A DNA stretch of 64,000 nt from a phage: NCBI GenBank assembly GCA_036253495.1, contig GCA_036253495.1_4125.1; one strand, 5' to 3'. The number at the start of each line of letters is the position of its first letter. Positions within the stretch are counted from its first letter, which is position 1. This document shows positions 5,990-40,368 of the stretch, in pieces. Made by a program: the position numbers and the translations under genes. Below the pieces are notes generated by a model, which saw nothing but the letters and a program-made list of their open reading frames with translations, made no database searches and was not told where the DNA came from.

Positions 5990-7165
5990 TCAAAATGTAG
6001 GAAGTTTGAATTCTCTCATAACAGATGAACTGCTTGCAGATACATTATCTGGTGATTTCCCTGCGTAGTATAATTTATTATCAATGAACATATACAATGT
6101 TGCATCATTTCCTGCTACAAGTGATTCACTTTTCTTAAATTTAACACCACTAGGTAAAATTGCTTCAACAAATGAACCTGATTCTCTTGTAGTATTATTT
6201 GCCAATTGACCATTGTTATTATAACCAGTACTATAAATTTTACCTGAACTATAATATACGAGTCCACGAGTACTAGTGTTTTCTATTCGAATGAATTCAC
6301 TATCATCTGGAACTGTCGTTGATAGTACTGGGTTTAACTTATAAGCAGATGATACATTATTATTACCCAATTGACCATAACCTTGAAAGCCTAGTGTATA
6401 CATAGGACATGATTCTGGTGTACCTTTTGTTATAATACCAATATAATTCACACTACAAAAAATGTCTATTACTTCTGTAATAGGTGTACCCTTATATTGA
6501 ACCCAAGGGAATACATACGATTGTTGCTTACCATTTCCCAAAGTACCGGAAGTTGTTGTCCCAGTACGCCACATTGTATCATCAAGTTTAATAATCCAGT
6601 TAGCTGTCGTTATCGATGAACAGAATTTTTTAACATTATCCACTAAAAATGTAAATTGATTATAATATGATGCAGTGTTTATACCAAACTTAGCACCAGT
6701 ATTATCACCTAACAAATATAAACTATTATCTGTACCTAAAATCAAAGCATAATCATAACCCACGTATATATCTTTAATTCTTGAAATTCCAAATTGTGTA
6801 AAATAGCTTGTACATTCTGTGAATGTTGTTATATTATTGGTTGTATTATTACCTAGCCATTTATCTAAACCACTATAAAAGAATCTATCATCATTTGTGC
6901 GTATTAGACAAAAAGCGTTCATTGTACTGCACCAAAAATCTTTAACATTGCTATATATTTTTGTCCATTCAGTTACTGCATTAGTATGACCTAAACCAAA
7001 AATTCCACCATTCTGAAGACCAATAGCCCATATTGAACCATTTTTATCAAGCATCATTGTACATGTATGTGAATAACCACCCGATGGTGTAACTAATTTA
7101 ACAAAATTGGGAATATATGGTAAAACTTTATTTCCATAATCCAACATTCTAACAAAAGGTAACAT
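5990..7165 (-). CDS. RCC1-like repeat protein, MLPFVRM-anchor paralog
   Basis: N-term MLPFVRMLDYGN; motifs GFQGYGQLGNN, GYNNNGQLANN; SD AAGGAGG; track extension rejected. Confidence 0.7.
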   Translation of the reverse strand: MLPFVRMLDYGNKVLPYIPNFVKLVTPSGGYSHTCTMMLDKNGSIWAIGLQNGGIFGLGHTNAVTEWTKIYSNVKDFWCSTMNAFCLIRTNDDRFFYSGLDKWLGNNTTNNITTFTECTSYFTQFGISRIKDIYVGYDYALILGTDNSLYLLGDNTGAKFGINTASYYNQFTFLVDNVKKFCSSITTANWIIKLDDTMWRTGTTTSGTLGNGKQQSYVFPWVQYKGTPITEVIDIFCSVNYIGIITKGTPESCPMYTLGFQGYGQLGNNNVSSAYKLNPVLSTTVPDDSEFIRIENTSTRGLVYYSSGKIYSTGYNNNGQLANNTTRESGSFVEAILPSGVKFKKSESLVAGNDATLYMFIDNKLYYAGKSPDNVSASSSSVMREFKLPTF

Positions 7166-8494: not shown

Positions 8495-9664
8495 TTAAAC
8501 TGGTGAATCTAATACAAATTCTAAACTACTAATGCCACCATATGTGACATTTGTCCCTGTGCTATATACAAAATTACCATCAGTTATATAAGTTCGGTTA
8601 TACCCACCTGCCATCTGCGACTTACTATAATCAAACCCATCAGGAACGATTGCTTTGGTATATACTAATGCATTATTAGATGTACCAATACCTAACATAC
8701 CAGCTCCTGAAGATTTATTGTAGCCGCAACAATATATACCATCTGTTGTAGCAATAACTTGGTTATAATATGAAGTAATGTTAGCAATGCTTACTACATC
8801 ACCGGGTGGCATTAGTGAAGCAGTTTGAACCTCAAATGCTCTATAATCACTGAGAGAACCATTTATCCCATCTGCTTGTGCACCAAATATTCTCGAACCG
8901 CCATTTGCGATGATGGTTTTACCAGTGGGATCAGTACCAATTGCCATTGCCATTGAAGTACTATTCTCCATATAGTACTTGATATTAATTGTATTTCTTA
9001 AGCTGGTAGGAGCACCATAATATATAGTATATAACTTACCTCCTGAACTTGTAACTGCATTTACTCTTCCTGTATAAAATAGCCATCCTTGGTTTGTAAC
9101 ATAACCGTGCATTAAATTACTTGCAAACAATTTAACAGGTAATTGATCTGCTGCGGTCGGAACAGTACTTTTGACGAATTTTCTAGCAACATTGTTAGTT
9201 GTTGTCCCATCACCCAACTGACCATCACCCCCTGCTCCAGTACTCCATATTGTTTGGTCTGTTAGTAATACACTTGTAGTCTGATAACTAACTGCTATAT
9301 CTAATATTGGTAATGTTAACGTATCGAATGTTGGCATAGCAGAAGTCCATATTGATACTGCTGCCCCTGGCATACCAACAGTTGTTGAACTTCCACTGTA
9401 CCATATTTCATCATTGCTTTTCTTAATAACTATCGACGTGGCTCCCATCCAAAAATCTTGAACATCAGAAGTGCTAAAAGTCCATGTAGTAACAATATTT
9501 TTGTGACCTAAACCCAAAAGACCATTTGTATTCTCACCACGCACATATAAATCACCACTGTTTGTTAAAACAGCAACATTATAGTTGTTAGCTAGTATTT
9601 TTTTAATATTTGGTTTAGCAGGTGCAATATTCCCATACTCTAACATTCTTACAAAAGGTAACAT
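8495..9664 (-). CDS. RCC1-like repeat protein, MLPFVRM-anchor paralog
   Basis: N-term MLPFVRMLEYGN; motif GAGGDGQLGDGTT; SD AAGGAGG; 44-aa track extension rejected. Confidence 0.7.
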   Translation of the reverse strand: MLPFVRMLEYGNIAPAKPNIKKILANNYNVAVLTNSGDLYVRGENTNGLLGLGHKNIVTTWTFSTSDVQDFWMGATSIVIKKSNDEIWYSGSSTTVGMPGAAVSIWTSAMPTFDTLTLPILDIAVSYQTTSVLLTDQTIWSTGAGGDGQLGDGTTTNNVARKFVKSTVPTAADQLPVKLFASNLMHGYVTNQGWLFYTGRVNAVTSSGGKLYTIYYGAPTSLRNTINIKYYMENSTSMAMAIGTDPTGKTIIANGGSRIFGAQADGINGSLSDYRAFEVQTASLMPPGDVVSIANITSYYNQVIATTDGIYCCGYNKSSGAGMLGIGTSNNALVYTKAIVPDGFDYSKSQMAGGYNRTYITDGNFVYSTGTNVTYGGISSLEFVLDSPV

Positions 9665-13278: not shown

Positions 13279-14427
13279 TCATTGTATAAATGACATATCT
13301 ACTTCTGTATAATTAAGAACGTTCTGTCCAGAAATACCACCCATTACTACTATTGCAATGCCACAATAATATAATTTTCCAGTATCCGTAAGTATAAGTG
13401 ATCCAGATGGACTGCGTACCAAATTACAAGAGGTATTAAACGAAGTATATGAAGGAGTATAGGAGTACTGATTAATATTATTACCAACACCTAATTGACC
13501 AGACGAGTTGCTTCCAGATGCATAAAGTACTTCATCACCTTTAACTATATGTGATGCCATGTTACCAACACAAGTATATAAACTATAAACACCTGCACTC
13601 AATAATGTGGGAGTTTTATATTGTATATCAGTAGAAGAGGAAGTACCACCTGTACCAAATTCGTTCCCATATTGTGCACCGAACTGTTTACCACAAGCGT
13701 ACAAATTATTATCCGATTTGATAAAAAATGTACTCTGATAACTTACATTAAAATCTATAACATCCGAAGAAATCATCGTCACCCCAGTAATAGAAGTTTG
13801 ATTACCCGTGCCCAACTGGTAGTAATAGTTAAAACCACAACCCCATAAAGTATTATCTTCTCGCAAATAAATGTTACCAACTGCCTTTTTAACCGAAGTT
13901 ATAGTATCTACTCTTTTGAATGTGTTAAAAGAATTAATGTTTGTACCATCACCAAATGATGATATGTTCGATATATTGTTAGCTCCACAACAATACAATG
14001 TACCATCGTTTGTTATCAAATTCACCTTCATATCATAAAAACTACTCATGTATTTTATATCAGAAACATTAATACCACTTGATGTTATCCACGTAGTACA
14101 GTCCGTCCACAAAGTTTTTCTATCAGTTACACCAGTGAATGCCTTCGTGTTACCAGTGATAAAAACTTTTCCAGTACCTTTCTCTTCATACAATTGACAA
14201 TCACTACTGTTATCTTCCAATAGAACTCGTTTAACATTCTCCGCACAAAGAATAAATTTACTCGATGCTACACCTGTACCAGTACCCCAATTCGTCGCAG
14301 AAGATGCATACAACTTATCAGTATAAGTATCATGAAGATACATGGAATCACTGGAATATATTTTAAAACGTCCATCATCACCAGGGGCAATATTCCCATA
14401 ATCAAACAATCTAACAAAAGGTAACAT
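13279..14427 (-). CDS. RCC1-like repeat protein, MLPFVRM-anchor paralog
   Basis: N-term MLPFVRLFDYGN; motifs GFNYYYQLGTGN, GSNSSGQLGVGN; first gene of minus-strand cluster. Confidence 0.7.
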   Translation of the reverse strand: MLPFVRLFDYGNIAPGDDGRFKIYSSDSMYLHDTYTDKLYASSATNWGTGTGVASSKFILCAENVKRVLLEDNSSDCQLYEEKGTGKVFITGNTKAFTGVTDRKTLWTDCTTWITSSGINVSDIKYMSSFYDMKVNLITNDGTLYCCGANNISNISSFGDGTNINSFNTFKRVDTITSVKKAVGNIYLREDNTLWGCGFNYYYQLGTGNQTSITGVTMISSDVIDFNVSYQSTFFIKSDNNLYACGKQFGAQYGNEFGTGGTSSSTDIQYKTPTLLSAGVYSLYTCVGNMASHIVKGDEVLYASGSNSSGQLGVGNNINQYSYTPSYTSFNTSCNLVRSPSGSLILTDTGKLYYCGIAIVVMGGISGQNVLNYTEVDMSFIQ

Positions 14428-14475
14428 AATTCCTCCTTTATTCATTATAATATATTTAATCAAAAAAGAAAACCC

Positions 14476-14504
14476 TTGACACCCTTTCAGTACTGATGTA
14501 CTAT
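14476..14504 (+). promoter_or_regulatory. sigma70-like promoter for family A array (divergent from RCC1 cluster)
   Basis: TTGACA - 17 nt - TACTAT, then SD AAGGAG and ATG at 14530. Confidence 0.55.
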
Positions 14505-14529
14505 ATGAGAAATCTAAGGAGAATCGTAC

Positions 14530-14757
14530 ATGCCATATGCTCTAAAGTACTACATCAATGAACTAAATGAACTAGAGTACGCAAAGGTTCTCTCTGACCA
14601 ATCGTGGCTAATTGAACTAAAAAATCAGAAGAGCACTGGGTGTAACCTTATGCTTGGTAGTGCACTGAATACCCTTACTGTGAGCATTGTACACAATACA
14701 CTATTAGGGGATACCCGTAAACAATTTTTAAACATCTTAGTACTAGTGGCTATATGA
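14530..14757 (+). CDS. small hypothetical protein, family A-like
   Basis: SD AAGGAG; first ORF after divergent promoter; N-term YALKYY. Confidence 0.55.
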   Translation: MPYALKYYINELNELEYAKVLSDQSWLIELKNQKSTGCNLMLGSALNTLTVSIVHNTLLGDTRKQFLNILVLVAI

Positions 14758-14954
14758 ACATTAACCCGTACTACATCAATGCATTGCACCCTGGGCTACA
14801 AGATGCAATGAAGAACCAAAAAACAGTACTGAAAAATGCTAAACGCATACCAGGACTCCTGAACTCAAACAGGAATAACCTCATCTGGAATGCAATAGAA
14901 GGTAACGAAAGTATGCAGTACTATTTCATCTTAACACTACTATTGGAGTACTAA
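14754..14954 (+). CDS. small hypothetical protein, family A
   Basis: ATGA overlap with upstream; N-term PYYINAL, C-term LTLLLEY. Confidence 0.6.
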   Translation: MNINPYYINALHPGLQDAMKNQKTVLKNAKRIPGLLNSNRNNLIWNAIEGNESMQYYFILTLLLEY

Positions 14955-14955
14955 T

Positions 14956-15165
14956 ATGAATACTGAACATAAAGAATTCTACACCAAATACCTCAGCAAC
15001 GAAGAACAAATGTTTCTAAGGAGTGTACCACCTGTAAGTATAGACACACCCAACACAAGGAATTGCTTTAATAATTGTATACGTAGTACTCTAGAAGCTA
15101 TTGAATGCAATAACAAAAATATGCAGTACTCAAGTTTAATCGGACTAATATACTTCTATGAATAA
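14956..15165 (+). CDS. small hypothetical protein, family A
   Basis: N-term HKEFYTKYL, C-term LIGLIYFYE; coupled. Confidence 0.65.
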   Translation: MNTEHKEFYTKYLSNEEQMFLRSVPPVSIDTPNTRNCFNNCIRSTLEAIECNNKNMQYSSLIGLIYFYE

Positions 15166-15352
15166 TCATAAAGATTTCTACTGTAGTAAACTACACAAGC
15201 AAGACCAGCTATCATTCTCTTTAGCACCACCTATGAGAAAGGATAATCTATATTACAATTACGATTTCAGGATGGCGACACGTTATGCAATAGAACATCA
15301 GTTCCCTGAAACTAAGTACCGCTCTATCCTGAACCTCATCTTTAAGTTCTAA
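15158..15352 (+). CDS. small hypothetical protein, family A
   Basis: N-term HKDFYCSKL, C-term LNLIFKF. Confidence 0.65.
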   Translation: MNNHKDFYCSKLHKQDQLSFSLAPPMRKDNLYYNYDFRMATRYAIEHQFPETKYRSILNLIFKF

Positions 15353-15363
15353 AAAGGTACTAT

Positions 15364-15576
15364 ATGAAAACTACAAACATTCATCAGTACTACATAGATA
15401 TTCTACCTAAAGATGTACAGTTCATACTTAAACAAGAATTCAGTACTTTTAAAAAACTTAAAAGAACCGCACCTTCAGCAATCATCCTGCACCACAAACA
15501 TGTCGTGCGTAATATTCTACAAGGTGCAACAGGGACCGAGTACTTTAATATAGTAAGGCTAATTACATTACAATGA
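15364..15576 (+). CDS. small hypothetical protein, family A
   Basis: N-term HQYYIDIL, C-term IVRLITLQ. Confidence 0.6.
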   Translation: MKTTNIHQYYIDILPKDVQFILKQEFSTFKKLKRTAPSAIILHHKHVVRNILQGATGTEYFNIVRLITLQ

Positions 15577-15758
15577 ATCATATAAGCTACTATTACCAAA
15601 AACTATCCGACAGAGACAAGTACAGCCACAACTCCCATGTGTGGTACTACAAACGCGGCAGTATAAGAGACAAACAACATTACTTCTGTACTGCTATAAA
15701 AGAAGTACTAACAACTAAGTACACGTACAGAGCAGTACTTAAACTTATTGAAATGTAG
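15573..15758 (+). CDS. small hypothetical protein, family A
   Basis: N-term SYYYQKL, C-term VLKLIEM; ATGA overlap. Confidence 0.6.
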   Translation: MNHISYYYQKLSDRDKYSHNSHVWYYKRGSIRDKQHYFCTAIKEVLTTKYTYRAVLKLIEM

Positions 15759-15766
15759 AGAATACA

Positions 15767-15946
15767 ATGCTAGAATACTACCTAAGCGTAATTTACCCAG
15801 AAGATAGATACGGCTTCAATTACTTCTCAATGAGCTATCATTGTAGTTCGCAAAGAAAACAAAGAAAATTACTCCTGAATTGTACTAAATTGGCACAGGA
15901 CGAAATGTTCACATATAATGAAGTACTGAAACTAATTTCTATCTAA
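15767..15946 (+). CDS. small hypothetical protein, family A (59 aa, not in ORF track)
   Basis: MLEYYLSVIY...YNEVLKLISI; below the 60-aa track cutoff. Confidence 0.6.
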   Translation: MLEYYLSVIYPEDRYGFNYFSMSYHCSSQRKQRKLLLNCTKLAQDEMFTYNEVLKLISI

Positions 15947-15954
15947 GGTACACT

Positions 15955-16134
15955 ATGCAAGAATTCTATATCTATAAACTCCAGAACAAAGATAGATACA
16001 TCTATAATCAATTCCAAAGGTACTACACAGTCGGGAACAAAAGAGATAAAAAACGATACCTGCTATCATGTACAGTAGAAGCACAAAACGAAAAGTACAC
16101 GTACAGAGAAGTACTGAAACTAATCTCTATATAA
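15955..16134 (+). CDS. small hypothetical protein, family A (59 aa, not in ORF track)
   Basis: MQEFYIYKLQNKDRY...YREVLKLISI; close paralog of 15767-15946. Confidence 0.6.
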   Translation: MQEFYIYKLQNKDRYIYNQFQRYYTVGNKRDKKRYLLSCTVEAQNEKYTYREVLKLISI

Positions 16135-16144
16135 GGAATAAACT

Positions 16145-16324
16145 ATGCTAGAGTACTACACCGATAATCTCAGTACTAAGGATCGTTTCATGTACGACAC
16201 CTTCGTGAAGTACTACAACCTGGGAACAAAAAGTACTAAAACTATTAATCTCAATAGCTGCATTCATCACGTCCTGACAAAAAATAACCCATACAGAGAA
16301 ATAATCTCGCTTGTAACAGTATAA
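16145..16324 (+). CDS. small hypothetical protein, family A (59 aa, not in ORF track)
   Basis: MLEYYTDNLSTKDRF...YREIISLVTV; overlapping antisense track ORF 16148-16429 rejected. Confidence 0.6.
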   Translation: MLEYYTDNLSTKDRFMYDTFVKYYNLGTKSTKTINLNSCIHHVLTKNNPYREIISLVTV

Positions 16325-16352
16325 GCAGTATAAGCAATTTAAGGAGACTAAA

Positions 16353-17024
16353 ATGAAACTCAATCCACAAAGCAAACGATACCTACAGCACTTCAAGTAC
16401 CTGCAATCAATCCAGGCTGAATCTACCACTAATGCATATACTTATCACCCTAATGTACTAAAGAACCTAAAGAAAAGTAAAAAAACCAGTACAAATGGAG
16501 TTAACGTATCAAAGAACCTTGAATTGTACATGAAGAAAAATAATATAGCTGTTCATTATATGAATATCTATAATACTGATTTAAAAGTATTGAGTACTAA
16601 TACGAGCATGAAGGTACTAAAGAACGCATCCTTCATCATCCATATGCAGTTGGATAATACCCCGTGCACTTTAATGCTATACTTCGGGAATACATACTTC
16701 TTCGGGAATTGTAACACCTCCCACGATGTCAATACAGCACAATTCCAAATGGGTGGCATATACAGTATGGGTTCAGAAGAAATACACGATAACATGCATT
16801 TCTTCCAACAGCAACGTACAGAAGAAACTAAATCAATTGTAGAATTCCTCAAAGAACTAGAACACAAAGAATTATCAGAAGAAGAACTATTCATGTACAG
16901 TACTGTAATCGATAATCCTGTACTGTACAAAAACGCGTACAATCTTACAAAACATGTACAGGAACTTATCAGTACTAATAAGAAAATTCATCACCTCATT
17001 ACATATATTACAAACTATGCATAA
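16353..17024 (+). CDS. hypothetical protein (223 aa) with family C-like EEELFMYSTVID motif
   Basis: SD AAGGAGA; embedded in family A array; C-terminal motif resembles family C core. Confidence 0.6.
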   Translation: MKLNPQSKRYLQHFKYLQSIQAESTTNAYTYHPNVLKNLKKSKKTSTNGVNVSKNLELYMKKNNIAVHYMNIYNTDLKVLSTNTSMKVLKNASFIIHMQLDNTPCTLMLYFGNTYFFGNCNTSHDVNTAQFQMGGIYSMGSEEIHDNMHFFQQQRTEETKSIVEFLKELEHKELSEEELFMYSTVIDNPVLYKNAYNLTKHVQELISTNKKIHHLITYITNYA

Positions 17025-17199
17025 AGAATACTACGTAAGTAAACTTACAATAGATCTCCAAAAACTTATTCCCCAAAAACCTGTAGATTTCAAAGATAAA
17101 AGCCAAACTATATTCTACCGATATCAAACAGAATCTGCAATAAATGAAGATGATATCTATAACTTGTACAATGTACTAACACTTATATACAGGTACTAA
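17017..17199 (+). CDS. small hypothetical protein, family A
   Basis: start MHKEYYVSKL overlaps upstream stop (ATGCATAA); C-term LTLIYRY; track extension rejected. Confidence 0.65.
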   Translation: MHKEYYVSKLTIDLQKLIPQKPVDFKDKSQTIFYRYQTESAINEDDIYNLYNVLTLIYRY

Positions 17200-17200
17200 T

Positions 17201-17389
17201 ATGCACAAAGAATACTACACAAAATATTTCCCAATGTACCTCATAACTAATCTATTAGATAAACCTCGCGGTATCAATGCACAAAACGATAAAAAGTACT
17301 TTACTATGTGCACTAAAGCATGTATACAAGATTATGATAGCTATCATCGAGCACTGTACCACACCCTGTACCTCGCATTCGTGTACTAA
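17201..17389 (+). CDS. small hypothetical protein, family A
   Basis: MHKEYYTKYFPM...LYLAFVY. Confidence 0.7.
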   Translation: MHKEYYTKYFPMYLITNLLDKPRGINAQNDKKYFTMCTKACIQDYDSYHRALYHTLYLAFVY

Positions 17390-17398
17390 GGAAATAAT

Positions 17399-17584
17399 AT
17401 GCATAAAGAATACTACATAAATAAACTCCCAATGCATCTACAATACCTTGTACCAACAAAACCATTGGGTATAGAAAAAGACTACGAAAAAGACTACTTC
17501 GTTAAGTGCACTAAATCCTCGATAGATATTGACGACTATAATCGAGTACTGTATCACATCCTTTTACTAATATATAAGTACTAA
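17399..17584 (+). CDS. small hypothetical protein, family A
   Basis: MHKEYYINKLPMHLQYLVPTKPLGI...LLLIYKY. Confidence 0.7.
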   Translation: MHKEYYINKLPMHLQYLVPTKPLGIEKDYEKDYFVKCTKSSIDIDDYNRVLYHILLLIYKY

Positions 17585-17585
17585 T

Positions 17586-17774
17586 ATGAACGACTATAAA
17601 GAATACTACCAAGATAAACTCCCAATGCATCTCCAACACCTTGTGCCAACAAAACCATTGGGCATAAAAGATCATGCAAAAATAATGTTCCAACAATGTA
17701 CTAAGTACACCCTAATATACGATGACAATCCATATATGCTGTACTACATAACAATGCTAATATTCAGGTACTAA
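17586..17774 (+). CDS. small hypothetical protein, family A
   Basis: MNDYKEYYQDKLPMHLQHLVPTKPLGI...MLIFRY. Confidence 0.7.
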   Translation: MNDYKEYYQDKLPMHLQHLVPTKPLGIKDHAKIMFQQCTKYTLIYDDNPYMLYYITMLIFRY

Positions 17775-17776
17775 TC

Positions 17777-17977
17777 ATGTATAAAGAATACTATATGAGT
17801 AAACTATCAAGCACCGAAAGAATCTGGTGCGAAGCCGCCGCCCCCGTTAATCCAAAAAGTGCATACGCAAAAATGGGCTTTAGGAAAGCTACAACGAACT
17901 CAATTGAAGCTCTAGAACAAGATGACACTAAAGCACTATACTCTAACCTAATGTTGCTAGTATATATCTATGGATAA
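17777..17977 (+). CDS. small hypothetical protein, family A
   Basis: MYKEYYMSKL...LLVYIYG. Confidence 0.65.
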   Translation: MYKEYYMSKLSSTERIWCEAAAPVNPKSAYAKMGFRKATTNSIEALEQDDTKALYSNLMLLVYIYG

Positions 17978-18161
17978 TTATAAAGAATACTATAAACAAT
18001 TTGTTAAAGAGAACTACAAAGATGCCGTCCCCGTAATCCCTTTAAATTCCCATGACCCAAGTTCTATATTCTTGTTTAAGGACGCAATACGTACAGTACT
18101 CAATACTAAAGATGAACAGGTGCAGTACGTATTCTTACTATTACTTATATACAGACACTAA
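17970..18161 (+). CDS. small hypothetical protein, family A
   Basis: MDNYKEYYKQF...LLLIYRH. Confidence 0.65.
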   Translation: MDNYKEYYKQFVKENYKDAVPVIPLNSHDPSSIFLFKDAIRTVLNTKDEQVQYVFLLLLIYRH

Positions 18162-18162
18162 T

Positions 18163-18360
18163 ATGAATGACCATAAAGAATTCTATATAAGTAAACTCAA
18201 AGAGAATGAACAAGTATGGATTAACGCTCTAATCCCTCTACCAATGACTCGATATGAATTTAATAAATGTACTAATATAGCAATAGACCCTTCTCCTGTT
18301 CTAGAGAATGTACAGTACAATCAGTACTACTATATCTTAATGCTTATATATAGGAAGTAA
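18163..18360 (+). CDS. small hypothetical protein, family A
   Basis: MNDHKEFYISKL...LMLIYRK; track N-terminal extension from 18052 rejected. Confidence 0.65.
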   Translation: MNDHKEFYISKLKENEQVWINALIPLPMTRYEFNKCTNIAIDPSPVLENVQYNQYYYILMLIYRK

Positions 18361-18990
18361 TTAAACACATATAGCTAGGGGAAGCTCCGTAGTGCAAGCA
18401 TTATACAGGCTTTAACATATGTTGCATATGTTAAAATTCAGCCTGGACAAATGCGATCACTAGGATTCTCCCCAGGCTAAACCCCGTAATCATAAGTAAT
18501 CATATATAAACATTTAAGTAATCATTTATAATCATTGTAGTGAACAGTATTGAGTACTAGAGTGCAGGAATGATTCAGAATGATTCAGTACTGATATCCC
18601 ACTAAGTAGGCAAATGAAGTCGCCCAAAATTTACATAATTTTACAGTACTGAACAATTGCAAAACAAATCATTTCCAATCAAAAGTAATCACGGAATGAC
18701 CAGTACTGAAAACTCCCAATCACCTATTCAAAAAAGTTCAATTTACCCTTTGTCAAAAATCCCGAATACCCATTGGGGAAAATTCCGAATACCCCTTGAG
18801 GCTCCAGCAAAAAGTTGGTTAGTACTCCATCGTAAATCTGGATCGTAAAAATTTTGGAGTACCTATGAAATAAAAGTTGGATCTTCGAAAGTTGAAATTT
18901 ACATTGGGACATATAGGATTAGTGGGATATAATGAGTTTTGAAGAGATACAGAGTATACGATTTCAGTACTGAATAATGGAAGAAATCTA

Positions 18991-19018
18991 TTGACATTAT
19001 GATTCAGTACTGTATAAT
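18991..19018 (+). promoter_or_regulatory. sigma70-like promoter with no downstream ORF
   Basis: TTGACA - 16 nt - TATAAT with AGTACTG spacer; T-run about 115 nt downstream. Confidence 0.5.
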
Positions 19019-19140
19019 GTTCTACATAGAGTGATGAATTGCCGCAAACAATTCAGAGCCTTAGCCCTCCTGTCGTGAGACAGTACAGAAGAGATTGAAT
19101 CCTCCTATGCAGTGGTTCATCTTTGACAACCTCTTTTTTC
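19019..19140 (+). ncRNA. candidate small non-coding transcript
   Basis: starts after promoter 18991-19018; no ORF or SD; internal hairpin CTGTC-gtga-GACAG; ends at CCTCTTTTTTCG. Confidence 0.25.
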
Positions 19141-19150
19141 GTAATATAAA

Positions 19151-19219
19151 CAGTACTGTTATTAACAGAATGGTAGCAGTACTGTTATTAACAGAATGGT
19201 AGCAGTACTGATATTAATC
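19151..19219. repeat. tandem direct repeat (26 bp x 2.6)
   Basis: CAGTACTGTTATTAACAGAATGGTAG x2 then CAGTACTGATATTAATC. Confidence 0.85.
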
Positions 19220-19372
19220 TAATATAATGTTACCATGCAATGTGGTGAATTTCCCTTAACAGTATTCAGTACTACATGATAGTCTTCATCCTCCTAGGGT
19301 AACATAGTGAGGGCTATGATGGCAGTACTGAATACTCCCTTCTTAAAGATAGATCTATGGTATAGTACTGAC

Positions 19373-19413
19373 GGATTTTGGGCGTAGTAACCCTGGGTGG
19401 ATTTTGGACGTAG
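19373..19413. repeat. direct repeat GGATTTTGG(G/A)CGTAG x2
   Basis: two copies 11 bp apart; related motif recurs at ~19745 and ~19950. Confidence 0.7.
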
Positions 19414-19444
19414 AGATGCCTAGCCCTCCAGAAGTCTGGAAGTA

Positions 19445-19592
19445 AAGATGGCTATCCCTCTAGACGGCTGGATGGCTGGATGGCTAGATTTCTAGATGGC
19501 TGTACTGCTAGACGTTTGGACGGCTAAACGGCTAGATGGTTAAACGTCTGGATGTATAGACGGTTAAATCAAAATTTTTATTTTGTTTTTTC
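19445..19592. repeat. iteron-like array plus AT-rich tract (candidate replication origin)
   Basis: about 10 degenerate copies of (T/G)(A/G)GA(T/C)GG(C/T)T in ~125 bp, followed by AAAATTTTTATTTTGTTTTTTCC. Confidence 0.4.
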
Positions 19593-19725
19593 CAATAGTT
19601 CCCCTACCGCGTGGGGATGGTTTCCCCGCAGTATCTGGAGTTAGATTTTTCTGAATCTGGAAACATTATCCCAGTTTTAGCGGGGTATGTCAACCGCCTG
19701 GATGAATATTTTTAAAAAATAATCT

Positions 19726-19808
19726 AGTACTGAATTTTGGGCGTAACTATGCACCCGGTGGGCTAGAGTCTTTCTCGACTTGATGAAATAATTATAGCAG
19801 TACTGAAT
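19726..19808. repeat. ~80-bp repeated intergenic element (copy 1)
   Basis: AGTACTGAATTTTGGGCGTA..GCACCCGGTGGGCTAGAG..TAATTATAGCAGTACTGAA; copies at 19944-20030 and 24041-24127. Confidence 0.6.
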
Positions 19809-19943
19809 TATAAAAGCAATAGCCTAAGTGTAAAAAGTTTTAATTAATTTGCTTGCCATCCTGGGGCGTACTATGGTACTATGATTCAGTACTGAGAAAG
19901 TACTTTGACCCGCTAGGGTGCGGGAGTGTATCCTTTTTAAATT

Positions 19944-20030
19944 TACTGAATTTTGGGCGTAGTTCCGCACCCCCTGGGGTATCCGCTTTCTCGCGTCTAT
20001 GTAGTAATTATACGCTTTTTTAGTACTGAG
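19944..20030. repeat. ~80-bp repeated intergenic element (copy 2)
   Basis: ACTGAATTTTGGGCGTAG..CACCCCCTGGGG..TAATTATACG..AGTACTGA. Confidence 0.55.
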
Positions 20031-20269
20031 TCAATAGCTAAAAACAAAATAATTGAAAATAATTTAACGCGTTTAAACGGCCCGTAAAGCCCTGGATTGT
20101 TGGGAGTGGTGCAAATGTATAGCTTAGGTGTATTAATGCGTTAGAATGCGTCTGAGGCCGTTTTAAGGGTATAGTACTGAATAATTGTACTCACTGGATT
20201 GATTCAGTACTGAATGATAGTACTCCTATATAGAAAGAAAACTATTTTAAAAGTATTTGCAGAAAGTAC

Positions 20270-20297
20270 TTGCATACTATGTTTAAGGGCGTATAAT
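20270..20297 (+). promoter_or_regulatory. early promoter
   Basis: AAAGTACTTGCAT ... TATAAT GTTTTACATC. Confidence 0.6.
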
Positions 20298-20353
20298 GTT
20301 TTACATCGAGACGGGGGAAACGCTCCTAACTCACTTTAATAGGAATTAAAACG

Positions 20354-20716
20354 ATGGCGACTCAAATCACTAAAATCATTGCTAACCTGGTTAACTTTCG
20401 CGAAGAGATGAAAGATCTTCCGGCTGAGACTGTAAAGATTCATATTTCAGCTTATCGGGAATTGATTGCAATGTTGCCGCTTAAGCGTGAACAATACGCC
20501 GCTACTGTGATGCTTGATGCGATGATCCACAAGATGATTGCCAGTGATTTAACGATGGCTTATCAGTACATGGGCGAACTATTTGCGGTGTATAGTAAAC
20601 CAGTGCCTGGGATGGAAAGTACAGAAGTATTGCACGGCTTAAACTTAAAACAAGATGCATGGGATAATATGCCTCGTTTCCTGGTATGGGCTGACAGTGG
20701 CAAGATTTACGAATAA
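20354..20716 (+). CDS. hypothetical early protein
   Basis: 120 aa; promoter TTGCAT/TATAAT upstream; SD AGGA. Confidence 0.65.
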   Translation: MATQITKIIANLVNFREEMKDLPAETVKIHISAYRELIAMLPLKREQYAATVMLDAMIHKMIASDLTMAYQYMGELFAVYSKPVPGMESTEVLHGLNLKQDAWDNMPRFLVWADSGKIYE

Positions 20717-20730
20717 GTTTTAAAAAGTAC

Positions 20731-20758
20731 TTGCAAAGTAAGTTTAAAAGCGTATAAT
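20731..20758 (+). promoter_or_regulatory. early promoter + 5' stem-loop
   Basis: TTGCAA-16-TATAAT; hairpin GTGGGGAA-tag-TTCCCCAC at ~20770-20789. Confidence 0.65.
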
Positions 20759-20810
20759 GTTTTACATCAGGTGGGGAATAGTTCCCCACTATATAAGAGG
20801 ATTTTTAATT

Positions 20811-21050
20811 ATGGCTACTACTAAAACTTTCAACGGTCACAAAAACAAAACTCATTGGAATGTAAGCCTTTGGATTAATAACGATGAGTCATTGTATCGT
20901 CTGGCGAAAGAATTTATCGACGCTAATACTAATCGTAATGATGCGGCCCGTCATATGATGCTATTTTTAGAACAAATTGGACAAGATAAAACTCCAGACG
21001 GTTTCAAGTATAGCACTACGGCGATCCGTGCTGCAATGGTTGGAATGTAA
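20811..21050 (+). CDS. hypothetical early protein
   Basis: 79 aa from MATTKTF; promoter + 5' hairpin + SD AGAGGA; track extension rejected. Confidence 0.65.
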   Translation: MATTKTFNGHKNKTHWNVSLWINNDESLYRLAKEFIDANTNRNDAARHMMLFLEQIGQDKTPDGFKYSTTAIRAAMVGM

Positions 21051-21071
21051 GAGAATAGATTTAAAGTACTA

Positions 21072-21096
21072 TTGCACGGTGATAGTACTTTATAAT
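21072..21096 (+). promoter_or_regulatory. possible promoter (weak spacing)
   Basis: TTGCAC ... TATAAT with short spacer. Confidence 0.3.
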
Positions 21097-21132
21097 AGAT
21101 TTCTTTTATACAACAACGATAGGGGTAACAGC

Positions 21133-21399
21133 ATGAATATTATATACTTTGCAACGCGTGAACAAGCTCGGCAAGCGGCAAAGGTTGACGGTGCAACGTT
21201 TAAAGATATGGGCGTACAATCTGAACGTGGTAAACGTTGGGCCGTAGTAAAGCAAAGTACAGCCCGATCAATTCAGTACTGGCTATCGGCTTTAAAGAGT
21301 CCTGATAGTGTATCGCGTCGAGTGGTAGAAATAAAGCACGACCGCAAGGGCAACCGTGTTACTGTGTACAGTACTAAAAAGATTGCAGTACTTGAATAA
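21133..21399 (+). CDS. hypothetical early protein (paralog of 33805-34200)
   Basis: 88 aa; shares FYATREQAR..GA.FKDMG..RWAV and HDRKGNRVTVYS with 33805-34200. Confidence 0.65.
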   Translation: MNIIYFATREQARQAAKVDGATFKDMGVQSERGKRWAVVKQSTARSIQYWLSALKSPDSVSRRVVEIKHDRKGNRVTVYSTKKIAVLE

Positions 21400-21405
21400 A
21401 AGTAC

Positions 21406-21433
21406 TTGCAAAGTAATTAGATTAACGTATAAT
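21406..21433 (+). promoter_or_regulatory. early promoter + 5' stem-loop
   Basis: TTGCAA-16-TATAAT; hairpin GTGGGGAA/TTCCCCAC. Confidence 0.65.
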
Positions 21434-21486
21434 ACTTTCTATCAGGTGGGGAATAGTTCCCCACTACAAATAAGAGGATTTTTAAA

Positions 21487-21717
21487 ATGGCTATTATGTA
21501 TATGACCGAAGTTAAAACCGTAAAAGATACTACCACTAATAAAACTACTTACTTACAGCGGGTATGCGGTGTATGGCAACGTATTAGTAAAGCAAAGTAC
21601 TTTAAATTAACATCATATGCTAATCGTTCGGATTCATTCAGTACTGAAATAAAAGGTAATAAATTACACCAATACGGCACTTATTATTATTATAGCCTGG
21701 ACGCGATTGCAGTCTAA
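21487..21717 (+). CDS. hypothetical early protein
   Basis: 76 aa; 5' region nearly identical to that of 20811-21050. Confidence 0.65.
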   Translation: MAIMYMTEVKTVKDTTTNKTTYLQRVCGVWQRISKAKYFKLTSYANRSDSFSTEIKGNKLHQYGTYYYYSLDAIAV

Positions 21718-21776: not shown

Positions 21777-21968
21777 GTATCTATTGAAACGAACAATTTG
21801 GCCCACGGGGTGCGGGAGTGTATCTATAGAAAAAGTAGTTTAGTACAGTTACAATTGTGCACCCTATGGGTTAGCTGTTGTCATGGGGTATATTATACCA
21901 GTACTTGATAATGCTGTCAATACTTTTTTTTTACTATTCAGTACTGAAAACTATTTTTTAAAAAGTAC

Positions 21969-22114: not shown

Positions 22115-22146
22115 ACTTACATCAACTACTGAATGAGAGTTACAAA

Positions 22147-22821
22147 ATGAAAACTATCACTACTACTACTTTCGTTATGGATTTTTCTGAATTGAATGAG
22201 GGTGGCAAAGCGAAAACTATCACTACTACTACTTATGTTATGGCTTTTTCTGAATTGACCGCAGAACAACAAACGTCAGCTATCGAACTGGTTCGGGATC
22301 GTGAGCGTTCATGCGGGGATGATTTCTTTTCTGAGTCAGTGATCGAATACTATAAAGAAACATTATTGCCGGAATATGGCATTAATGACGCAGATTTACG
22401 ATTCAGTGGTTTTTGGTCGCAGGGTGACGGTGCATCAATCAGTACTGATCACGTTGACGGTGTGAAGTTTTTACGCAAGATTAAAGCATTAACTAAGTAT
22501 CGTTCTATCCGTCACCTGCTGAATGAAGATGATTTGGCAATGAGTGTAAAGCGTTCTCACTCCCACTACTCGCATGAAAACACTGTAAGCGGGTACATTG
22601 AATCGGCTTACACTGATTTAACCGCAAAACAAGAAACGTTAGTTAATGAGCTTGAGGAACTACTCACTGAAACTATTCGTGAATTATCTCGCAAGTTGTA
22701 CCGTGATTTAGAGAATGCATATGAGGATCAATTCACTACTGAGAACATTGTAGCACTGATTGAGGGTAACGAATATCAATTCAATGTTATTGATGGCGTA
22801 GTAGAATCAATCGAATATTAA
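22147..22821 (+). CDS. hypothetical protein with N-terminal in-frame tandem duplication
   Basis: 224 aa; KTITTTT(F/Y)VM(D/A)FSEL repeated twice; tandem promoters and structured leader upstream. Confidence 0.65.
   Translation: MKTITTTTFVMDFSELNEGGKAKTITTTTYVMAFSELTAEQQTSAIELVRDRERSCGDDFFSESVIEYYKETLLPEYGINDADLRFSGFWSQGDGASISTDHVDGVKFLRKIKALTKYRSIRHLLNEDDLAMSVKRSHSHYSHENTVSGYIESAYTDLTAKQETLVNELEELLTETIRELSRKLYRDLENAYEDQFTTENIVALIEGNEYQFNVIDGVVESIEY
22150..22262 (+). repeat. in-frame tandem duplication (~66-bp period) at 5' end of CDS 22147-22821
   Basis: AAAACTATCACTACTACTACTT..GTTATGG.TTTTTCTGAATTGA present twice. Confidence 0.8.
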
Positions 22822-24010: not shown

Positions 24011-24040
24011 GAGGGGATCGATTGATCCCCTTTATTTTGC
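24011..24040 (+). terminator. rho-independent terminator
   Basis: GGGGATC-gatt-GATCCCC + TTTATTTT. Confidence 0.7.
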
Positions 24041-24127
24041 AGTACTGAATCATTTAATAGACGGATCTATGCACCCGGTGGGTTAGAGACTGTATCGTCT
24101 TGATGTAGTAATTATGCCAGTACTGGA
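24041..24127. repeat. ~80-bp repeated intergenic element (copy 3)
   Basis: AGTACTGAA..CTATGCACCCGGTGGGTTAGAG..GTAATTATGCCAGTACTGG. Confidence 0.6.
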
Positions 24128-24172
24128 TGCAGTTGTCAAGAACTATTTTTCAAATACTTTTTATTAAAATAC

Positions 24173-40157: not shown

Positions 40158-40199
40158 TGAATTAAATGATTCAGTACTAAAACTATTAGTCAGAAAATA

Positions 40200-40236
40200 A
40201 TCGGTGCATTTTTAAAATGCATCGTTTTTTATTTTA
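40200..40236 (+). terminator. rho-independent terminator at end of early region
   Basis: CGGTGCATTTT-ta-AAATGCATCG + TTTTTTATTTT. Confidence 0.7.
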
Positions 40237-40339
40237 ACCAGTACACTATAACGTATGAAATAGTTTCGACCTGTTATTATAACTTAGGGCAACTAGGGGC
40301 GGGTAATTGCTTAGCTCGTGTGAAGGGGTTCATAGGGTA

Positions 40340-40368
40340 TTGACTTTTTATATGAATCGTGTATTATA
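40340..40368 (+). promoter_or_regulatory. promoter for family B array
   Basis: TTGACT-17-TATTAT, then SD AAGGGAG and ATG 40398. Confidence 0.55.

Follow-up and report, generated by a model that had tools for sequence, protein, structure and literature searches.

What does a 2-kb stretch of phage DNA do when it carries no recognizable gene and is filled with short repeats, palindromes and promoters? We asked this about positions 18361-20353 (the tract) of a 64-kb window, the whole stretch of DNA analysed here, which comes from an Asteriusvirus jumbo phage of E. coli (121Q/PBECO4/G17 group, ~350-kb genome). The initial annotation took an array of short repeats beside an AT-rich stretch to be a classical origin of replication, and offered a packaging site or a cluster of regulatory-protein sites as alternatives. 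Our analysis points instead to a non-coding end module, of the T5 or T7 style, that belongs to a jumbo phage with long terminal repeats and recruits a host repressor, MetJ. We give this reading, as opposed to a classical iteron origin, a probability of about 0.55. The genome ends of Asteriusviruses have already been deposited in a few records, and the content of the 2-kb gene-free tract has apparently not been described so far.

The tract spans a predicted genome end

The G17 record contains an exact direct terminal repeat of 20,668 bp, which its authors inferred from read coverage (PMC6563267). For fEgEco12, PhageTerm was used to set the ends, which restriction digests then confirmed, and its repeat is 20,993 bp long (PMC13070987); vB_Ec-M-J has an annotated repeat of 21,525 bp. 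These three independently determined genomes have the same start base, as expected of fixed, sequence-specific ends. All begin with AGTAGGCAGAGGAAGTC, which aligns with position 18605 of the window (AGTAGGCAAATGAAGTC). Because the ends of these three relatives are homologous to 18605, the tract is predicted to straddle the left boundary of a long direct terminal repeat. The virion DNA of the window phage very probably ends between 18604 and 18605, at a cut made by terminase. The junction of GATATCCCACTA and AGTAGGCA at this point is present in all 11 genomes that we aligned. In RaK2, GAP32, CBB and BF the end is likewise preceded by CCACTA or coincides with the aligned start base, and GAAGTCG is found ~12 bases inside it. 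Across five genera, the CCACTA cut motif and a block close to it are conserved. With the end placed here, the tract is made up of 244 bp of unique right-end DNA and the first 1.75 kb of a terminal repeat of ~21.7 kb. In at least six Asteriusvirus records the repeat array of the tract lies at +785 to +975 from the end, with two copies in each genome. These data support the packaging-site alternative to the extent that a terminase-generated end maps within the tract.

Conserved elements lie on both sides of this end (Table 1). The inverted repeat outside it has conservation scores of 0.98-1.0 among the 11 genomes. At the equivalent spot, single-sequence folds of RaK2 and GAP32 give hairpins with unrelated stems and the common loop CGATC..GGATTC. 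In T7, duplication of the terminal repeat makes use of a hairpin immediately outside it, which is a lead for the hairpin at 18440-18478. Inside the end, the block at 18801-18900 scores 0.92-1.0 in the 11 Asteriusviruses, and its core, AAATCTGGA to TAAAAATTTTGGAGTACC, is kept 60-270 bp from the end in RaK2, GAP32, CBB, BF and fENko-Kae01. This block is likely the best candidate for a phage-specific terminase or packaging recognition site.

The right boundary of the predicted repeat is approximate (40305-40312). Around this boundary (GGGGCGGGTAATTGC before it and TTAGCTCG after it; window 40160-40340), the preceding ~180 bp have diverged from G17 and the promoter of the next paralogue family comes directly afterwards.

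An array of 8-bp units resembles a MetJ operator

About ten degenerate 8-9-mers had been described at 19445-19570. An array is present there, but it is longer than this and consists of 20 abutting, in-phase 8-bp units at 19406-19565, for which Tandem Repeats Finder reported periods of 8, 16 and 24. Indels between the window and its relatives within the array have lengths in multiples of 8 bp. The phase-aligned consensus of the units, RGAYGKCT, includes the E. coli MetJ metbox AGACGTCT and is also found in the arrays of CBB, BF, GAP32 and the T7-like phage PGT2. When all 65,536 8-mers were ranked as consensus of the units, AGACGTCT came 5th. The variation at each position parallels the tolerance of MetJ, with A or G at position 1 and C or T at position 4.

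Sites for MetJ were sought with the matrix for half-metboxes that Augustus and Spicer published (PMC3228920), at their thresholds. As a control, the same scan run on 5 kb from E. coli picked out the two true operators and nothing else, metJ/metB at 31.2 bits and metF at 24.9 bits. In the 64-kb window the scan reported only 19462-19501 (5 boxes, 36.5 bits) and 19510-19565 (7 boxes, 56.6 bits), two runs in the same phase separated by one weak box. The 12 passing boxes total 93 bits, ~3 times the score of the real metJ/metB operator, and three additional good boxes occur at 16-bp spacing before the runs (19414, 19430 and 19446). The maximum observed in 100 dinucleotide-preserving shuffles of the window was 21.5 bits with 3 boxes.

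The array and the E. coli MetJ operators have in common abutting tandem 8-bp boxes and CTAG junctions, and pass the same matrix and thresholds. Individual boxes of metF and the phage are nearly identical (GGACGTCT AAACGGAT AGATGT in metF and GGACGGCT AAACGGCT AGATGG in the phage). As a comparison, the metJ/metB and metF operators have 4 boxes each and natural MetJ operators have 2-5, whereas the phage array has 12-20. The E. coli operators are located at promoters of methionine genes, whereas the phage array overlaps no promoter and no met gene is present; the nearest promoters are at distances of ~100 bp on the minus strand and ~400 bp on the plus strand. Together, these features suggest that the array is probably an oversized operator that would be coated by host MetJ bound to S-adenosylmethionine (SAM). 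If the array does bind MetJ, it would be by far the largest MetJ operator known.

The sequences on either side of the array are also conserved. The direct repeat reported at 19373-19413 is present as two copies of GGATTTTGGRCGTAG, and there are two further copies within the 80-bp elements described below and an inverted one at 18619-18631. Similar repeats, ATTTTGGG, are found in CBB, BF and GAP32 and in the terminal regions of T5 and the T5-like Vibrio phage Pontus. The AT-rich stretch and GC hairpins noted after the array are both there, both conserved, and both found in other genera as well; the TTTTTCCATTAG motif of the T-rich stretch is conserved in CBB, BF, GAP32 and RaK2. The minus-strand fold of the hairpin region (19560-19658) has z = -3.15 and was the sole outlier among the transcripts folded.

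Two other identities for the array were rejected. Chi-like protection against RecBCD fits poorly, with no Chi site (GCTGGTGG) in the tract, an insertion in the units (GCTGGATGG) and the wrong orientation for the nearby end. A CsrA-sponge RNA would need GGA motifs, which occur in only ~1/3 of the units, and the fit to MetJ is far better.

The array recurs near genome ends in three groups of phages

A BLAST search with the array returned 79 records that fall into three groups: Rak2-like jumbo phages, T5-like phages and T7-like phages. The Rak2-like bearers belong to four genera. We measured the distance to the end in those records that begin at the genome end or in which homology showed where it is, and the array lies at +0.65 to +0.97 kb in CBB, BF, Erwinia pEa phages, XbC2 and GAP32. 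The T5-like bearers are Vibrio and Aeromonas phages, including Pontus with 15 boxes and 112 bits. The T7-like bearers are PGT2, phiKT, KPV811 and NNA-G4; in PGT2 a 9-box array is contained within an exact 260-bp terminal repeat and in NNA-G4 the array is annotated inside the right terminal repeat. In IMG/VR, a strict 4-box pattern matched only four uncultivated viral contigs (118.5, 35.6, 17 and 40 kb), with two matches in the 118.5-kb contig. All of these matches are within ~0.8 kb of the end of the fetched locus, which may not be the contig end, and this suggests a terminal position for the metbox arrays in these contigs. A looser 5-box pattern was not used for statistics because it also caught probably unrelated simple repeats in giant-virus contigs.

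MetJ is found only in Enterobacterales, Pasteurellales, Vibrionales, Aeromonadales and Alteromonadales, and 78 of the 79 array-bearing records have hosts in MetJ-possessing orders. The relatives of the window phage infect E. coli and Salmonella, and Enterobacterales, Vibrionales and Aeromonadales all have MetJ. No phage record searched encodes a MetJ homologue. A shared host protein would explain the identity of the units across families better than unrelated phage proteins would. Literature searches with the literal repeat sequence returned unrelated papers only, and a search for MetJ boxes in phages found nothing relevant.

In some relatives a different array occupies the same slot. RaK2 and fENko-Kae01 keep the flanks, that is, the ATTTTGGG repeats, the T-rich tract ending in TTTTTCCATTAG, CTACCGCG..GCAGTATC and a convergent promoter pair, but are without metboxes and have GAGAATnATTCTC-type repeats there instead. 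These repeats resemble the consensus Fur box, with agreement at as many as 16 of its 19 positions. Repeat region 3 of T5 also has Fur-like repeats where Pontus has metboxes, and T5 and Pontus are alike in having DnaA boxes upstream and GTGCAAATCCGAC repeats downstream of the slot. Clusters of Fur-box-like sequences (GATAATGATAATCATTATC, 13-16 of 19 positions) are found at 9470-9640 in T5, at 2047-2160 and 2333-2357 in RaK2 and at 711-800 and 1034-1060 in fENko-Kae01; they are enriched relative to shuffles, with 5-8 matches against ~0.5 expected.

The tract is conserved in blocks and appears to be non-coding

Matches to the tract, at 80-93% identity, were found in 42 phage records. Every one is a jumbo myovirus of the 121Q/PBECO4/G17 group, and the closest relative is Escherichia phage A4. 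The tract is preceded by a plus-strand array of ~60-aa paralogues and followed by a long run of small plus-strand genes. The records of relatives show only scattered short hypothetical open reading frames (ORFs) in the tract, which differ from record to record, and one software-predicted terminator (in G17). There are 11 ORFs of at least 30 aa in the window version of the tract, and 10 of these are intact in only 1-3 of the 11 aligned relatives. All 11 Asteriusviruses keep the remaining one intact (19953-20087, 44 codons with a TTG start and no ribosome-binding site). It probably encodes no protein, because it overlaps the near-invariant minus-strand unit 2 and is truncated by a stop in the cross-genus relative fENko-Kae01. 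These results are in line with the initial annotation, which saw no coding region before the first early gene.

The 11-genome alignment shows the tract to be a mosaic in which highly conserved blocks alternate with variable, indel-rich patches. Blocks at 18441-18510, 19261-19460, 19481-19660 and 20041-20160 score 0.95-1.0, whereas the first gene scores 0.67-0.77. Several non-coding blocks are better conserved than the neighbouring genes. The repeats and other features listed in the initial annotation all exist at or near the places it gave, with the corrections of detail described here. Comparison of 17500-21500 with Rfam at E <= 1 produced no match, and no tRNA was found. Dcm sites (CCWGG) are enriched in 18361-20353, with 7 present and ~1.6 expected from shuffles. 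Outside the tract, two copies of a 63-bp tandem duplication (22130-22273, 79-87% identical) are found within the ORF at 22147-22821.

Promoters and other features of the tract

Thirty-nine near-consensus sigma-70 promoters are found on the plus strand of the terminal repeat, spread over ~21 kb (18991-39423). They have a common design consisting of aaAGTACTTGCAA or TTGACA, a 16-17-bp spacer that often ends in CAGTACTG, TATAAT and a TACAT start, and 36 of the 39 contain AGTACT-type motifs. This pattern strongly indicates that the CAGTACTG palindrome is a component of sigma-70 early promoters. The initial annotation described a 12-bp palindrome that occurs many times. This is accurate for the 8-bp core CAGTACTG, of which there are 12 copies in the tract and 59 in the window compared with 0.83 expected, but not for the exact 12-mer TTCAGTACTGAA, with 2 copies in the tract and 5 in the window. 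The 12-mer resembles the SlmA site, GTGAGTACTCAC. In most promoters of the repeat an identical TACAT start is followed, ahead of the ribosome-binding site, by a leader hairpin (GGGGAGAA..TTCTCCCC), an unusually uniform design for an early-gene cassette. The hexamer AGTACT (the ScaI site) is over-represented generally, with 271 copies in the window and 176 compared with 10 expected in G17 1-30000. Copies lie within coding sequence and promoters alike, yet there are none in ~46-52 kb of the window.

At least six sites in the tract itself look like strong promoters, and they occur on both strands. Together with the score of the array as a MetJ operator, these support the idea of a cluster of regulatory-protein sites. 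The promoter at 18991-19018 had been thought to drive ~115 nt of non-coding sequence to a T-run. The promoter is there, but among the aligned relatives the T-run at ~19133 is found only in the window phage and A4, and the 115-nt transcript is therefore not a conserved unit. The 26-bp tandem repeat reported at 19151-19219 is present (19151-19217, 2.6 copies), though its copy number varies among relatives and the extra copy is peculiar to the window phage or at most shared with A4. The ~80-bp element exists in four copies rather than three and corresponds to a minus-strand promoter unit; all four of these promoters have CCCAnnGGGTGC ~30 nt downstream. Minus-strand unit 2 is kept in fENko-Kae01 with base changes that are symmetric within the palindrome, and GCCCACAGGGTGCGGAG, homologous to the plus-strand unit at 19853-19940, is found in CBB, GAP32, BF and fENko-Kae01. 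We also considered the 80-bp element as a structured RNA. This idea is unsupported because shuffled sequences fold as well as the RNAs predicted from the promoter at 18991 and from the plus-strand and minus-strand units (z = -0.1 to -1.7).

Table 1. Coordinates of features in and around the tract (window positions; strand given where one applies)
Feature	Position	Strand	Basis or remark
Conserved inverted repeat GCCTGG...CCAGGC, 39 nt	18440-18478		127 bp upstream of genome end; loop CGATC..GGATTC
TAATCAT-type direct repeats, 10-bp and 22-bp periods	18486-18536	+	Tandem Repeats Finder, repeat search
Genome-end motif GATATCCCACTA / AGTAGGCA	18593-18612		Predicted left end between 18604 and 18605
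Predicted direct terminal repeat, ~21.7 kb	18605-40310		Homology to G17 repeat junction
Ultra-conserved block, core AAATCTGGA...TAAAAATTTTGGAGTACC	18801-18900		200-300 bp inside end
First early promoter, TTGACA-16-TATAAT, CAGTACTG in spacer	18991-19018	+	12/12 consensus match; no ORF downstream
26-bp tandem repeat, 2.6 copies, each unit starting with CAGTACTG	~19151-19228	+	Tandem Repeats Finder
Two copies of GGATTTTGGRCGTAG, 26 bp apart	19373-19413	+	Repeat search
Metbox-like array, consensus RGAYGKCT	19414-19565		12 boxes pass MetJ criteria, plus 3 good boxes
A/T-rich tract ending TTTTTTCCAATAG, 33 bp	19566-19598		Conserved
Conserved GC hairpins CCCCTACCGCGTGGGG, GGGGATGGTTTCCCC	19599-19660		Conservation 0.96-1.0
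Leftward promoter TTGACA-17-GATAAT, TG-extended	19665-19693	-	Fires toward GC hairpins, AT tract and array
Minus-strand unit 1: promoter 19834 to 19807, then CCCACCGGGTGC	19715-19850	-	80-bp element, copy 1
Weak plus-strand promoter, then hairpin CCCGC-TAGGGT-GCGGG and T-run	19853-19940	+	Converges with minus-strand unit 2
Minus-strand unit 2: promoter 20034 to 20007, then CCCCAGGGGGTGC	19930-20050	-	80-bp element, copy 2
Block similar to T5 inverted repeat B' and to its copy in T5 repeat region 3	20135-20176		blastn
Promoter of first repeat gene (ATG 20354)	20270-20297	+	Typical TACAT leader hairpin
Minus-strand promoter unit, copy 3 (promoter at 21920)	21815-21935	-	Outside tract
Minus-strand promoter unit, copy 4 (promoter at 24139)	24030-24155	-	Outside tract; third copy in initial annotation

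Proposed role of the tract and alternatives

We propose that dimers of host MetJ with SAM are recruited to 12-15 usable metboxes and would form a cooperative filament of ~150 bp, an idea that we hold with the same fairly good confidence as the oversized operator itself. The filament would lie 0.8-0.95 kb from the DNA end beside the conserved T-rich tract and GC hairpins. A covarying hairpin lies upstream of the end, and the ultra-conserved block 200-300 bp inside it would be the packaging recognition site. The tract has the first of ~40 strong sigma-70 early promoters, and several leftward promoters face the DNA end. More tentatively, a filament placed between the rightward upstream promoter and the leftward downstream promoters could act in cis as a barrier or anchor that depends on SAM and a host factor. 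Such a barrier might block RNA polymerase or another translocating machine and so insulate the genome end while DNA enters the cell or its ends are processed, a role that we liken to that of the repeat-rich untranslated region at the terminal-repeat boundary of T5. We consider it a speculative and rather doubtful extension that, in at least three unrelated families, phages with direct terminal repeats put long arrays of cooperative sites for host proteins that sense cofactors into the non-coding part of these repeats. The arrays would then be interchangeable landing pads, and a class of cis-acting element not recognised before, through which the metabolic state of the host gates genome-end events. 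The proteins and cofactors would be MetJ (SAM), Fur (iron) and DnaA (ATP), and the gated event an entry pause, end protection or insulation of early transcription.

Several points weigh against an end module that recruits MetJ. Binding of MetJ is predicted from sequence, and at position 6 the units more often have G than the T that MetJ prefers. The Xanthomonas phage XbC2 (OP292654.1, 655-810), a Rak2-like jumbo phage, has a metbox-like array in both terminal repeats and its host genus is outside the five MetJ orders; this exception may reflect host range or a different binding protein. RaK2 and fENko-Kae01 have a different array, and MetJ itself would therefore be dispensable for the role of the slot. 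The genome end was placed by homology, not observed, because the window contains only a single copy of the repeat.

The alternatives, some of which are mutually compatible, include the one first favoured, a classical origin with iterons and an AT-rich unwinding element. This was not borne out. There is no DnaA box (TTWTNCACA) and no IHF site (WATCAANNNNTTR) in 18361-20353, no adjacent initiator gene and no conserved ORF in the tract, and the units are abutting, MetJ-matching 8-mers rather than spaced 17-22-bp iterons. An origin of some other kind, with iterons for a phage initiator or with the leftward promoter (19693 to 19665) priming R-loop replication in the AT tract as at T4 and T7 origins, appears quite unlikely to us. 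It would account for a promoter followed by GC hairpins and a 33-bp AT-rich tract, and the Rak2-like phages carry T4-type replisome genes (PMC5259590). Cumulative GC skew over the full genome had been suggested as a check, and within the window it has a minimum at ~18,800. However, this turn coincides with the physical genome end and the edge of the paralogue family of odd composition, not with a change of gene strand, and is thus uninformative on replication; GC skew was computed within the 64-kb window and is confounded there by module composition. The ~60-aa paralogue array (14300-18360, plus strand) has a GC skew of -0.1 to -0.35 and an AT skew of +0.2 to +0.3, opposite to other plus-strand genes, and creates an apparent minimum at the genome end. 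The replacement of the array by a different repeat in RaK2 and fENko-Kae01 also argues against an origin. In T4-like systems terminally redundant DNA ends also start recombination-dependent replication, and initiation of this type from the repeat ends may occur.

The position of the array bears on the other alternatives. Packaging sites are often arrays of short repeats, as in P1 pac, SPP1 pac and the CCTAAAG arrays of T7, of which we confirmed those of T7. In four jumbo-phage genera the array keeps a fixed distance from the end (+0.65 to +0.97 kb), and in T7-like phages it lies inside the terminal repeats. Both would suit a packaging signal bound by a phage protein, either a small terminase subunit or a ribbon-helix-helix regulator, with the likeness to metboxes being coincidental or convergent. 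We consider this unlikely, since the same 8-mer consensus is found in three unrelated families with differing terminases and regulators, the units vary in the way that MetJ tolerates, and the host distribution matches that of MetJ. Use of the phage DNA as a decoy that titrates MetJ and de-represses methionine and SAM synthesis and transport in the host would fit 12-15 boxes per copy, two copies per genome and a score ~3 times that of the strongest E. coli operator tested. This gives no reason for a position near genome ends in every lineage, and phages of the T5 and T7 types shut off and degrade host DNA early, leaving little to gain from host de-repression; we regard it as improbable. We give equally little credence to an injection stop like that of T5, at which entry would pause and expression would at first be limited to the terminal repeat and its ~50 small early genes. 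The tract does resemble T5 repeat region 3 as a long untranslated stretch of repeats and palindromes over the boundary between repeat and unique DNA that is better conserved than nearby ORFs, it has a 42-nt block in common with T5, and T5-like Vibrio phages have the metbox array where T5 has DRC repeats. However, the module is at the tip of the left repeat and would be distal only if the other end entered first, 18361-20353 has none of the paired DnaA boxes that typify T5, and no two-step transfer has been reported for these phages.

If the array does bind MetJ, virulent phages of different families would have converged on a host metabolic repressor at their genome ends. This would provide a handle on the role of the conserved repeats at T5-type repeat boundaries, on how long terminal repeats are recognised and duplicated, and on the control of early DNA entry in jumbo phages. 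It also calls for caution in annotation, in that iterons plus an AT tract close to a phage genome end are not necessarily an origin.

Comparison with known systems

Iteron origins of plasmids and lambda-like phages have direct repeats that adjoin an AT-rich tract, as is seen here with the conserved stretch at 19566-19598. They differ in having several repeats of 17-22 bp, usually spaced, a cognate initiator gene and DnaA boxes, whereas the array in the window has 8-bp units without spacers, neither an initiator gene nor DnaA boxes, and is replaceable in sister genera.

The left end of T7 has the same order of elements as the tract: the genome end, an array of short repeats, an E. coli promoter reading leftward (A0), a stretch of AT-rich DNA, strong early promoters for the host polymerase and then the first gene ~0.9 kb in. 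Among T7-like phages, PGT2 has its metbox array within the terminal repeat. By contrast, the CCTAAAG unit of T7 itself fails the MetJ matrix, its terminal repeat is 160 bp compared with ~21 kb in the window phage, and T7 has a promoter for a phage RNA polymerase (phiOL), a further difference from the window phage.

The exact 20,668-bp end duplication in G17 is of the T5/SPO1 type of genome with long terminal repeats, and by homology this would apply to the window phage. T5 differs in having paired DnaA boxes in inverted repeats and Fur-box-like repeats, whereas the tract lacks DnaA pairs and has metboxes. The T5 region is at the inner end of the left repeat, whereas the tract is at the outer tip, which equals the inner edge of the right repeat. 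T5 delivers its DNA in two stages, for which there is no evidence in the window phage. T5 repeat region 3, which is untranslated and holds the injection stop signal, is like the tract in being 1.2-1.7 kb of gene-free DNA over a junction of repeat and unique sequence, in being better conserved than the flanking ORFs and in adjoining pre-early genes with strong host-type promoters. Both have ATTTTGGG-type repeats, and T5-like Vibrio phages hold a metbox array in the slot. They also have in common the block at 20135-20176, for which blastn aligned 42 nt with T5 9267-9308 (E = 2.8e-4) and 25 nt with T5 6189-6213, and which has a conservation of 0.97-0.99 within the genus.

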